Below are positions 39,056 to 42,000 of a DNA stretch of 64,000 nucleotides, piece by piece. The stretch is taken from assembly GCF_003018115.1 (NCBI RefSeq), contig NZ_CP027457.1, one strand, 5' to 3'. The DNA comes from Escherichia coli (GTDB lineage Bacteria > Pseudomonadota > Gammaproteobacteria > Enterobacterales > Enterobacteriaceae). Every line of letters begins with the position of its first letter. The stretch's first letter is position 1. Made by a program: the position numbers.

Positions 39056-42000
39056 TAAGTTCGCTAAAAAACAGAACGGGGCCACAAGGTCCCGTTTTTT
39101 TTCGCCTTTATTTCGGAAAAGTGTCCAGAGGGGGCGAGGGGACTCGGGGAGTATAATTTCGCCATTCAGAAAGAATGGAAAGAATAATGCAAAACAGAAA
39201 ATGGATTTTGTCCTCGCTGGTGATGACTTTTTTTGGCATCCCCATACTGACGCAATTTTTGGCGGCGGTTGTCGCTATGCTGGGTGTCGGACTTGCCGGT
39301 ATTATTGAAGTTTGTAATATCCTTATCACGCCAACAATTTATCTTCTACTCAACGTCTTTATGCTGACGCTGGGGGCGATAATAATATTTTTCTCTGGTC
39401 GCGTGTGGGACGGTGATAGCGCGCCAGAAAACAGAGAAATAGCCGTCTGGCGGCAATGCTTTTTTCTCTTACCCGCGCTATTAACCCTGGTTGGCTGGAT
39501 AATCGCGCTGCATCTGGCAGATTATCAATTTCGCCAGATGGGAGCTGGTTGGTTGGCAAACCTTATGCTTCCCTGGTTGGGCGTTTTTTTAGTCTCATTA
39601 GTGGGTGGTGAGTACTGGTGGATGGTCATTATTCCCGTTGGGGCGCATATCAGTTTTTCGCTGGGATACGCTTGGCCGACCAGATATCCTTTATCCGGCA
39701 CGTCCGGACTACGTTGCCGTAACTTACTCCTGTTTCTACTTCTCTTACTTGGTATTGTCGCCGGGTATCAGGCCCATTTATATAAGCAGCAAAATCCCGG
39801 CGTCGGTGTGCGCGAAAATATTGATACCTGGGCCTGGCGACCCGATAAACTCAATAATCAACTGACACCATTACGTGGTAAACCGCAAATTCAGTTTACG
39901 CAAAACTGGCCGCGACTCGATGGTGCTACGGCGGCGTACCCAATTTATGCCTCTGCCTTTTATGCGTTGAGCGTTATACCGGAAGATTTCCACACCAGGG
40001 AATATCTGGAGAACTCTCGTACCCCCGATGCATATAACAGGATTGTTAAAGGTGATGCCGATATTATTTTTGTGGCGCAACCCTCCGGTAGGCAGAAAAA
40101 ACGCGCTGAGGAATCGGGCGTCACTTTGCTATACACGCCATTTGCCCGTGAAGCATTCGTTTTCATCGTCAATGCGGATAATCCGGTTAATTCCCTGACT
40201 GAACAACAGGTGCGTGACATTTTCAGTGGTGCAATTACCAACTGGCGTACTGTTGGCGGTAACGATCAGGAGATCCAGACCTGGCAACGCCCGGAAGACT
40301 CTGGCAGCCAGACGGTGATGCAATCACAGGTCATGAAAAATGTCCGCATGATCTCGCCGCAGGAAACCGAAGTGGCAAGCGTGATGGAGGGAATGATTAA
40401 AGTTGTTGCCGAATACCGTAATACAAACAACGCAATAGGCTATACCTTCCGCTATTACGCGACGCAAATGAATGCTGATAAAAATATAAAATTGCTAGCG
40501 ATTAACGATATTACACCGACGGCGGAAAACATTCGCAACGGCAAATATGCGTACATCGTCGATGCATTTATGGTGACGCGTGAAAATGCCACGCCGGAAA
40601 CGCAGAAATTTGTTGACTGGTTTTTAAGTCCGCAGGGGCAACAGTTGGTAGAGGATGTGGGGTATGTGCCGTTGTTGGTGTGGCCGACGGTGGTTGCGCT
40701 GGCTGCTTGTATTATCACGCTGAGTTTTCTGGGGGAAATGCTGTGCTCAATCTCGCTCATGATCAGGCGTATTTCACTTCTGCAATTACAACTTGGGTTA
40801 TTGGCTGAATATACGCTTTTGTTCTGCGCCTTATGTTGCGTTGGTTGGCAATTTGCTCGCATAACTCAATCTGAATTGAAAAGCAAACTGCATTATTGGC
40901 TGGTATTTGTACCAGTTTATTTCTGGTTGCTCCTGTGGAATATCATTTTCTATGTCGCGCCAGCGAAAATTGCGTTGCTGGAAAGTATCCGCAATTTCTT
41001 TCTGCTTGTTGTCTGGCTACCCCTGAATTTTTCGCCATTTTGGCCTCAGCCGTGGACGGATTTTATCGGTCCAATAAGCGCACAGCTTGGTTTTGCGTTG
41101 GGATATTATTGCCAGTGGCGTAGCAAAAATAGAAGCCAGATACGGAAGTGGAGTGAGTGGGGAACGTGCCTGAGTTTTGTTACGTTGGGTATGATGGCGT
41201 GGGCTTTACGGTAATTCTCTGACTCAAAAAGTAGATCAGATTGTTGACAAAGTGCACTTTGTTCATGCCTGATGCGGCGTGAACGCCTTCTCAGGCCTAC
41301 AAAATCATGCAAATTCAATATATTGTATAAACAACGTAGGCCAGATAAGCGTAGCGCATCTGGCAGTTTTTTGGTTTGTCATCAGTCTCAGGTCAGATTG
41401 AAATCTGACCTGGCCACCTTACATTAAATCACGACGCCAGCGACAGCTTCTGCTGCGTATACTCCACCAACCACTGACTCACACGAGATTGTTGTTCTGC
41501 ACTTAGCCACATACCTTGTTTTGTGCGACGCCACAGGGCATCGTCGGCGCGGCGGACCCACTCGTGGTCGACCAGATATTTCAGCTCCGTTTCGTAGAAC
41601 TCATGACCGAAATCTTCCCCAAGATCGCTTACCGCTCCCGCATTGCCGAGCAGCAGCTCGCTGTTGCTGCCATAAGTACGCGCGTAATGACGTGCCAGCG
41701 ATTCGGTCAGAAACGGATAACGGCGGCGTAAGCGAGCGGCATAATCGTCGCGGTCGCCCTCGATGGCGCCACCCGGTAGCACGCTCTCTTTCGTCCATGC
41801 CGGGCCAATACCCTGATAATACGGCGTTAGTTTTTCCAGCGCATGTTCCGCCAGTTTTCGGTAGGTGGTCAGCTTACCGCCGAATACCGACAGCAGCGGT
41901 GCTTTGCCATTTTCATCATGAATATCAAGGGTGTAATCACGGGTAATAGCCTGCGGCGAGTCGGACTCATCATCACATAGTGGTCGCACACCGGAGTAGG

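Follow-up and report, generated by a model that had tools for sequence, protein, structure and literature searches.

In Escherichia coli, the gene for the phosphate-binding protein PstS lies in the pstSCAB operon. RefSeq uses a similar name, [quoted passage not shown] for two genes that some strains carry at another site, between glgP and glpD. We will refer to these genes as g1 and g2. In K-12, as the preliminary description of this locus had stated, the site holds just a 222-bp pseudogene, yzgL (b3427), which is ~90% identical to the initial ~236 bp of g1.

In the literature we found nothing on membrane-anchored orphan PstS proteins, and yzgL receives incidental mentions only. Probably, g1 was never studied because it is absent from K-12. 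The glpD-glgP interval is also part of the structurally variable glp-glg "Hotspot A," for which seven arrangement groups were reported among 83 strains (PMC13185298). The passages of that paper that we consulted do not describe the protein family, the paralogy of the genes, or the fusion allele that we discuss here.

The fused open reading frame

Our window is a stretch of 64,000 nucleotides from E. coli (contig NZ_CP027457.1) whose sequence is 100% identical to that of E. coli O169:H41 strain F9792 (NZ_CP024273.1). Between glgP and glpD, it does contain the uninterrupted 679-codon frame that had been described from the sequence (Table 1). The start codon is uncertain: alternative starts at 39184 or 39187 would give proteins of 676 or 675 amino acids. 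The homologues' N-termini, M(M)xNxKW, align with the ATG at 39187 and hence with the 675-aa form, while the RefSeq feature begins at 39184, and public protein databases contain proteins of either length, 679 aa or 675 aa. The frame is not an assembly error, as the same junction is found in six independent complete genomes and an identical 675-aa protein is on record for 326 contigs. Nevertheless, the term "intact" does not match the annotation. In F9792, RefSeq describes this copy as a pseudogene ("incomplete; missing C-terminus") with a separate open reading frame of 185 aa after it, and GF3-3 has the same pseudogene call.

Table 1. Features of the glgP-glpD interval (window coordinates)
Feature	Position	Strand	Description
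glgP	36611-39058	+	5' neighbor of the fused frame
glgP intrinsic terminator	39074-39102	+	GC-rich hairpin and T8; from RNA folding and sequence reading
Candidate -10 element	39152-39157	+	Perfect TATAAT, 18 bp 5' of the fused frame; from sequence reading
Fused open reading frame	39175-41214	+	679 codons, uninterrupted
g1-derived membrane domain	39175-39810	+	aa 1-212, six long helices; invariant Pro23 and Gln199
PstS-like binding domain	39922-40632	+	Pfam PBP_like_2 envelope, aa 250-486; E = 3.6e-31
Junction 1, ATGGTGACG	40570-40578	+	9 nt common to g1 and g2; switch from g1-type to g2-type sequence
g2 3'-end segment	40579-40671	+	Codes for the last helices of the binding domain
RefSeq ORF WP_244451614.1	40657-41214	+	185 aa; internal to the fused frame, covers the g3-derived region
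Junction 2, GTGCCGTTG	40666-40674	+	Codons V-P-L; microhomology at the 95-bp deletion
g3-derived membrane region	40672-41214	+	g3 residues 21-200; membrane-domain paralogue without its conserved N-terminus
glpD	41429-42949	-	3' neighbor of the fused frame

The putative terminator of glgP (-19.3 kcal/mol for the RNA fold of 39060-39110, z = -3.8 relative to shuffled sequences) would separate transcription of the fused frame from that of glgP. No good -35 element was seen for the TATAAT at 39152, and a scan for promoter and terminator consensus sequences around the frame gave no enrichment over shuffled sequences. Searching Rfam gave REP-derived matches only, all of them 3' of the frame and below threshold.

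Origin by fusion of three genes

In several E. coli strains without the fusion (O157:H7, ATCC 8739, E. coli C, and BL21), three genes lie between glgP and glpD, which we take to be the ancestral arrangement. The first, g1, encodes a 502-aa protein with a helical membrane domain of ~210 aa (TMD) and a periplasmic PstS-like domain (PBP); g2 encodes a 330-aa PstS-like paralogue with a lipoprotein-type signal (LAGC); and g3 encodes a membrane protein of 200 aa, which is paralogous to the TMD of g1 but stands alone. In the window, the frame consists of g1 through 40569, the 3' end of g2, and g3 without its first 20 codons. BLAST alignments show that 39060-40675 is collinear with g1 and that 40665-41429 is collinear with g3, with ~0.95-1.09 kb missing in between. 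Thus, we found collinearity with separate genes, direct repeats that bound a lost segment (see below), and a frame that is restored across the junction, which are the marks of a fusion by deletion. We conclude that the 679-aa frame is very probably derived and specific to its lineage, having arisen by the in-frame fusion of three neighbors in a variable glgP-glpD cassette.

The two junctions show how this happened. At junction 1, in a sliding comparison of 45 nt, the window through 40572 is identical to g1 at 45/45 positions (35/45 for g2), and from 40573 it matches g2 at 44/45 positions (33/45 for g1). At the shared ATGGTGACG, g1 and g2 recombined through their homologous 3' parts, which deleted ~1 kb and left a hybrid of the two genes followed by g3. 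This state is preserved in strain PE164, which has a 507-aa g1/g2 hybrid and then a 200-aa g3. Junction 2, GTGCCGTTG, was placed by base-level comparison with PE164, CP52E, and UTME-4: 95 bp were deleted, comprising the last 10 codons and the stop codon of the hybrid as well as codons 1-20 of g3. Imperfect direct repeats (TGTGCCGYTGT / TGTRCCGTTGT) lie at this deletion, which brought g3 in frame to yield TMD-PBP-TMD'. We infer the order of the two deletions from PE164, the one intermediate strain that has been verified; the same final sequence would also result from gene conversion and then a single larger deletion.

The preliminary description had emphasized that transmembrane segments flank the binding domain on both sides. 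The C-terminal region of the fused protein is indeed hydrophobic, but it is g3, joined on by the 95-bp deletion. Nor is this a general architecture: native homologues of ~480-530 aa from other E. coli strains and from Klebsiella, Salmonella, Rahnella, Saezia, Brachymonas, and other genera end, in every case, at DVGYVP(L/M)xx, a few residues past the binding domain, whereas the window's protein continues for 179 g3-derived residues. The fused junction is contiguous in just 6 of 5426 complete E. coli genomes (O169:H41 and relatives). The observation itself is confirmed, but the picture of an intact protein anchored on both sides finds partial support only: the shape is owed to two deletions that joined three genes. 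This seemingly exotic TMD-PBP-TMD arrangement reflects a recent fusion in one small lineage at a known structural hotspot.

Could the 679-aa form instead be ancestral, with the three-gene form derived from it by insertion or duplication? This is a formal possibility, and the window's frame is the longest one at the locus, but we consider the idea to be effectively refuted. Homologues in at least 8 other genera stop at ~500 aa; the N-terminus of g3 that is absent from the window is highly conserved, including across E. coli, E. albertii, and E. marmotae; the missing segment is flanked exactly by short direct repeats; and full-length g1 DNA is present in 3342 of the 5426 genomes (62%), far more than carry the fusion. 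About 24% of the genomes have a K-12-type locus and about 15% lack g1. In every unfused strain that we examined, g1 is annotated as an intact coding sequence.

The fused protein is probably still made and inserted into the membrane, because the 2-kb frame is open, because the TMD and PBP keep all of their family-invariant residues, and because the fusion point would be on the periplasmic side. The last point comes from helix parity, which suggests that the fusion point is periplasmic in both parents; in this model the PBP domain would be periplasmic and the g3-derived part would keep the orientation that it has in native g3. The g3-derived half may be impaired. A competing explanation is that the frame is a dead pseudogene, with g2 and g3 destroyed and g1 damaged, and that it is too young to have decayed. 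We think that this is somewhat improbable, though not by much. RefSeq's annotation pipeline (PGAP) flags the gene as incomplete, g2 is gone, g3 has lost its first 20 residues, 9 of which are invariant positions, and the dN/dS of g3 is slightly higher in comparisons that involve the window (0.27-0.49 versus 0.20-0.38). The fusion occurs in a small lineage only, and the locus must be dispensable, given the K-12-type strains and the strains without g1. Yet relative to the g1/g2 hybrid, only a poorly conserved tail of 10 residues is lost, all six complete genomes with the fusion have an identical junction and no further lesions, the exact protein recurs across those 326 contigs, no invariant TMD or PBP residue has been lost from the intact frame, and the fusion point appears to be topologically compatible.

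The native TMD-PBP family

The more interesting part of this locus is the parent gene g1, which joins a PstS-like domain to an unassigned membrane domain and is selectively maintained. The ~62% of complete genomes with its full-length DNA include those of O157:H7, BL21, E. coli C, and ATCC 8739, while K-12 lacks it. The ~500-aa TMD-PBP family is widespread in Enterobacterales. Ratios of dN/dS were 0.08-0.25 for g1 and 0.2-0.5 for g3, which indicates, at the sequence level, that the native family is under purifying selection.

The resemblance of the central domain to PstS, which was first noticed from motifs, was borne out by both domain search and structure prediction. Besides the match to PBP_like_2, AlphaFold2 (AF2) predicts an alpha/beta domain at ~aa 240-497 (pLDDT >90 over aa 230-500), and the top 20 Foldseek matches in the PDB are PstS structures throughout (for 4gd5, for example, E = 1.4e-14 and the TM-score is 0.79, normalized to the target). 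A profile search of the PDB also found 4gd5 (E = 1.4e-27). These results identify a type II periplasmic-binding-protein fold of the PstS type.

We aligned the family to the phosphate-bound structure 4gd5, taking the ligating segments to be those canonical for PstS (G-S-T-S, G-S-x-G, S-R, and R-x-x-G-S-G-T) rather than deriving them from the coordinates. The anion-binding motifs are kept (G-A-T-A, with its threonine; T58; and R-P-E-D-S-G-S), and the threonine of the S-R-T segment is nearly invariant. However, the canonical S-R binding segment of PstS is replaced by an invariant Q-P-S in the TMD-PBP family, which also has additional invariant residues, including A-R-E-A-F-V-F and G-Y-x-F-R-Y-Y. 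Against NCBIfam's curated PstS model (TIGR02136), the window's protein scores 130.4 bits, intact g1 122.2 bits, and g2 119.1 bits, all below the cutoff of 206.6 bits.

The N-terminal polytopic membrane region that had been described is real as well. AF2 predicts hydrophobic helices at 2-46, 53-82, 87-114, 124-144, 149-169, and 177-206 (pLDDT ~82-97); the first, at 45 residues, may cross the membrane once at a tilt or twice, and our topology rests on these helices together with the positive-inside rule. The window's protein has the features that define the family's TMD: the invariant Pro23 and Gln199 and the motif I-P-V-G-x-Q...F-x-L-G-Y. The TMD matched no family in Pfam or NCBIfam, had no relative among solved structures, and showed no homology to the permease domains of ABC transporters. 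(Acyl_transf_3 matched weakly in two distant members, but with 1 of 23 TMD sequences hit, at E = 0.005, we rejected this as hydrophobic noise.)

The relationship of g3 to the TMD required profile methods because BLASTP found just a 12-residue match (E = 0.038). Comparing the two with hhalign gave a probability of 97% (E = 9.2e-11 over 168 columns), and a TMD profile search of 1.84 billion proteins recovered 197 representatives and hit that of g3 (P0139, E = 9.8e-9). The MAFFT composite alignment had likewise set the g3 rows on the N-terminal TMD, which reflects this genuine paralogy; as a consequence, our first AF2 model had no information for residues 535-679 (pLDDT <50). Free-standing TMD genes also occur without an adjacent PBP gene.

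We examined 10 genomic contexts of TMD-PBP genes, from E. coli, Klebsiella, Salmonella (two loci), Rahnella, Saezia, Brachymonas, Jinshanibacter, and a wastewater contig. None has an ABC permease or ATPase gene as a neighbor. Our analysis of conserved neighbors gave no recurrent partner gene; two contexts that adjoin ruv are probably a coincidence. A precomputed "YbbD_head" assignment for genes 3' of g1 in Klebsiella and Salmonella was set aside: these proteins are unrelated to g3 of E. coli, and our local Pfam search gave no match.

Possible roles and comparison with known systems

Our tentative proposal, which we hold with low confidence, is that native g1 is a receptor tethered to the inner membrane and that it binds a tetrahedral oxyanion (phosphate, a related anion, or a phospho-compound). 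The PBP domain of g1 would work with its own TMD in cis, and g2 plus g3 would be the equivalent in trans; such a system would gate transport or signal without delivering phosphate to PstCAB. The replacement of S-R by Q-P-S, the free-standing TMD genes with no PBP gene alongside, and the lack of a conserved partner all count against this proposal.

It is also conceivable, but unlikely, that g1 and g2 plus g3 constitute an undescribed binding-protein-dependent system of the inner membrane, with a TMD of 6-7 helices that is unrelated to those of ABC, TRAP, or TTT transporters or of sensor kinases. In that case, the O169:H41 fusion, tolerated in nature, would serve as a "Rosetta-stone" clue that the TMDs of g1 and g3 act jointly, for instance as a heterodimer.

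Slightly less probable still is that g1 is simply a membrane-anchored PstS that feeds phosphate to PstCAB. This is what the RefSeq names of g1 and g2 imply, and the closest solved structures are all PstS, some of them phosphate-bound, with the motifs R-x-x-x-S-G-S and G-x-T-x conserved. But the TIGR02136 score falls well short (130 bits versus 206.6), an invariant Q-P-S stands where S-R is expected, alongside the other family-specific invariant residues, and a conserved domain of 6-7 helices far exceeds the needs of an anchor. Furthermore, pstCAB-like neighbors were found in 0 of the 10 contexts, and E. coli already has a pstS in its own operon. Partner ABC genes are absent and the scores are below the family cutoff; the database name of "phosphate ABC transporter subunit" is likely to be a misannotation that recurs in thousands of genomes.

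Compared to yzgL, which occupies the same locus, the two lineages had different fates: K-12 lost the remainder of g1 along with g2 and g3 by a larger deletion, while the window's lineage fused the genes and kept most of the coding sequence. The PstS of the PstSCAB importer (4gd5, 1twy, and 4exl) has the same type II fold, at ~22% identity, and shares with the TMD-PBP family the anion motifs G-x-T-x in the N-lobe and R-x-x-x-S-G-S/T in the C-lobe. In contrast to PstS, the family has a conserved membrane domain of 6-7 helices in place of a signal peptide, and its genes are orphans in variable intergenic sites, with no pstCAB neighbors. ABC importers of the GlnPQ/OpuA type, with covalently linked substrate-binding domains, similarly combine a periplasmic binding domain and a polytopic membrane domain in one chain; here, a split version (g2 and g3) adjoins the fused version (g1).

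The fused reading frame between glgP and glpD

The window matches E. coli O169:H41 strain F9792 (NZ_CP024273.1) at 100% identity, and it does carry, as the preliminary description said, a large open frame between glgP and glpD. The claim that it encodes an intact protein is not supported: it is a rare deletion fusion, and RefSeq already annotates the F9792 copy as a pseudogene followed by a separate in-frame hypothetical protein.

Features around the fused reading frame (window coordinates)
Feature	Position	Strand	Remark
glgP	36611..39058	+	upstream flank
Cassette hotspot	39060-41430		glgP-glpD interval
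Strong hairpin, then T8	~39074-39102		directly after glgP; -19.3 kcal/mol, z=-3.8
TATAAT	39152-39157		perfect; read in sequence
Fused ORF	39175..41214	+	679 codons, uninterrupted
RefSeq pseudogene	39184-40674		"missing C-terminus"; RefSeq start at 39184
Alternative ATG	39187		675 aa
Junction 1	40570-40578		ATGGTGACG; switch from g1 to g2
RefSeq hypothetical protein	40657-41214		185 aa
Junction 2	40666-40674		codons V-P-L; comparison with PE164
REP-type palindromic repeats (two)	41261-41343		between fused ORF and glpD
glpD terminator hairpin	~41388-41412		downstream of REP repeats
glpD	41429..42949	-	downstream flank

Other strains have three genes at this locus: g1, which encodes a 502-aa protein with a membrane domain (TMD) and a periplasmic-binding-protein domain (PBP); g2, whose product is either PstS-like (330 aa, 58% identical to the PBP of g1, with LAGC as a lipoprotein-type signal) or an unrelated 258-aa protein; and g3, which encodes a 200-aa membrane protein. 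By BLAST, g1 matches 39060-40675 and g3 matches 40665-41429, and the ~0.95-1.09 kb between them is absent. We compared the window to g1 and g2 of ATCC 8739 and UTME-4 by sliding-window identity. Up to 40572 it is of the g1 type (45/45 versus 35/45 for g2), and from 40573 onward the 3' end of g2 fits better (44/45 and 43/45, versus 33/45 and 36/45 for g1); the switch lies in 9 nucleotides common to both genes. Strain PE164 retains an intermediate, in which a g1/g2 hybrid of 507 aa precedes a complete g3. Compared with PE164, the window is 95 bp shorter at junction 2. Imperfect repeats flank this deletion (TATGTGCCGCTGT in the hybrid, TATTGTACCGTTGT in g3; TATGTGCCGTTGT remains in the window). 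It removes the last 10 codons and stop of the hybrid and the first 20 codons of g3, which brings g3 in frame. We propose that recombination within the shared nucleotides joined g1 to the end of g2, as in PE164, and that the deletion between repeats then fused the hybrid to g3; we infer this order from one verified intermediate. The g1 part is itself a mosaic, with its TMD nearest to the UTME-4 type and its PBP nearest to the PE164 type.

The start codon is uncertain: homologues open with M(M)xNxKW, a pattern that fits the alternative ATG, and public protein databases hold both 679-aa and 675-aa versions. The hairpin after glgP and the TATAAT make it likely that the fused ORF has its own promoter, although a consensus scan found no enrichment relative to shuffles. 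The REP repeats have sub-threshold Rfam matches to the REP-derived families ES036 (34.6 bits; gathering score 37.6) and naRNA4.

Prevalence and variability of the locus

The junction is contiguous in just 6 of 5426 complete E. coli genomes (F9792, F8111-1SC3, two O169:H41 strains, GF3-3, and LR882990.1), and the exact 675-aa protein occurs on 326 contigs in a wider collection. The fused form is a true allele that has been sampled repeatedly and is confined, among complete genomes, to those six. Of the genomes surveyed, 3342 (62%) have full-length g1 DNA, and ~791 have no match. Another ~1293 have the first ~236 bp alone (the yzgL type); K-12 belongs to this class, in line with the preliminary description, which gives it only a fragment. 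yzgL appears in the literature only incidentally, as in a table of the CpxR regulon (PMC2731931).

Homologues of g1 from Klebsiella, Salmonella, Intestinirhabdus, Phytobacter, Limnobaculum, Rahnella, Brachymonas, and Saezia are all ~480-530 aa and end a few residues past D-V-G-Y-V-P. The g3 N-terminus, absent from the window, shows high conservation in E. coli, E. albertii, and E. marmotae (R6, Y8, and L14-V19 are invariant). Rarity, homologue length, and this conservation rule out an ancestral fused form and indicate that it is derived. The observation is confirmed, but its interpretation as an intact protein anchored on both sides of the binding domain is only partly supported: the C-terminal part is fused g3, and homologues end after the PBP.

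Rates of evolution indicate that g1 (dN/dS 0.08-0.25, dS 0.2-0.4) and g3 (0.2-0.5, dS 0.14-0.88) are being maintained rather than decaying, and that their allelic lineages are old and mosaic; the values for flanking glgP are 0.02-0.05 and 0.02-0.10. Synonymous divergence among strains of 0.2-0.4 for g1 and g3 against 0.02-0.10 for glgP, together with identical GlgP proteins in F9792 and K-12, points to deep allelic lineages of a mosaic inner-membrane or periplasmic protein gene.

The interval is a cassette hotspot across our comparison loci L002 (CP52E), L003 (UTME-4), L005 (PE164), L007, L009, L013, and L023, and has been described in PMC13185298 as "Hotspot A" of gene-neighbourhood variation. 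The gene after g1 encodes the PBP lipoprotein (885 genomes) or the unrelated Cys-rich 258-aa protein (allele matches in 2446 genomes). In B2 strain BEN2908 the interval lacks g1 and contains fimbrial genes, genes for proteins of 236 aa and 255 aa, and one that is g3-like; in Salmonella and Klebsiella, "YbbD_head" lipoproteins take the place of g3. Unrelated g2 variants share a tail (…SPESSGQ* and …SPEQSGQ*; L003:6620-6650 and L002:5480-5512), and a 181-aa downstream protein of Salmonella (L009:7564-8109) includes AAIPEQSGIW. This tail looks like a module boundary for cassette exchange.

The TMD-PBP family

The central domain is PstS-like, as claimed. Pfam PBP_like_2 matches residues 250-486 (E=3.6e-31), and the AF2 model is confident for residues 1-500, with six long helices (2-46, 53-82, 87-114, 124-144, 149-169, and 177-206) followed by an alpha/beta domain. 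The top Foldseek matches in the PDB are solely PstS-type phosphate-binding proteins (4gd5, 9l8j, 1twy, 4q8r, and 4exl), the best being 4gd5 (E=1.4e-14; TM-score 0.79, normalised to target). When the PBP profile is aligned to phosphate-bound 4gd5 (E=1.4e-27), G-A-T-A pairs with G-S-T-S and R-P-E-D-S-G-S with R-E-D-G-S-G-T; the family has a nearly invariant Thr opposite the G-S-S segment and an invariant Q-P-S in place of S-R. A-R-E-A-F-V-F and G-Y-x-F-R-Y-Y are invariant and peculiar to the family. With ligating positions that we take from general knowledge of PstS rather than coordinates, an oxyanion-type pocket, not necessarily specific for phosphate, is plausible.

The lipoprotein signal of the paralogue g2 implies that the PBP of the fused protein must be periplasmic. 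Counting the modelled helices back from it would place a cytoplasmic loop at 47-52 and turn the region round invariant Pro23 to the periplasm. Fusion took place at g3 residue 21, which aligns with g1 residue ~23, so the PBP is directly followed by a 24-residue hydrophobic segment, which would run from outside to inside, and then R-R. The rest of g3 would keep its native orientation, so the fusion would be topologically permissible. The g1-derived part keeps all family-invariant residues; the g3-derived part may be impaired.

A search of 1.84 billion proteins with the TMD profile finds just 197 representatives. TMD-PBP proteins of ~500 aa make up nearly all of them, and some are free-standing forms of 180-215 aa. 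Every odd-length member examined also has PBP_like_2. g3 aligns with the TMD (hhalign probability 97%, E=9.2e-11, 168 collinear columns), the TMD profile matches its representative P0139 (E=9.8e-9), and both contain P-[VI]-[GS]-[SA]-Q-[IL]-x-F-x-L-G-Y-Y. These similarities indicate that g3 is a free-standing paralogue of the TMD, so the ancestral cassette is g1 beside a split copy in reversed order (PBP g2, then TMD g3).

Elsewhere, free-standing TMD genes do not always have an adjacent PBP gene. In another enterobacterial genome (L014/L015:4001-4624), the glgP-glpD site has only a gene for a 207-aa TMD (P0223; a g1 cut short or a TMD that naturally stands alone) and then two small unknown genes. 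A second Salmonella paralogue of g1 lies between ruvC and ruvA (L019:5001-6497), and the homologue from Brachymonas runs into the 3' end of ruvB (L020:5001-6503); these distant taxa may share a ruv-adjacent context by coincidence. P0013 (685 aa, from a single Logan contig) is a different long form, with the N-terminus of an AI-2E-family transporter (Pfam E=1.2e-41) joined to the C-terminal part of g1; it may be a further rearrangement or a chimeric assembly. In Sakai (O157:H7, NC_002695.2), the two features under a 2.5-kb match to g1 carry the names "membrane protein" and "ABC transporter ATP-binding protein". Pfam scans of g1 and g2 proteins from other strains found no ATPase domain, so the latter name looks like a misannotation.

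The residual interest is in this uncharacterised family, which is absent from K-12 and probably misnamed. Its PBP shares the fold of PstS and would work in a PstS-like way, but the fused ORF scores below the cutoff of TIGR02136, the NCBIfam model for the PstS subfamily (130 bits versus 206.6), and no ABC permease or ATPase gene or other recurrent partner was adjacent in ten contexts examined. In view of these two results, we do not class it as a PstS orthologue. Although the TMD is unrelated to ABC permeases, the covalent layout of membrane and binding domains resembles that of SBD-fused ABC importers.
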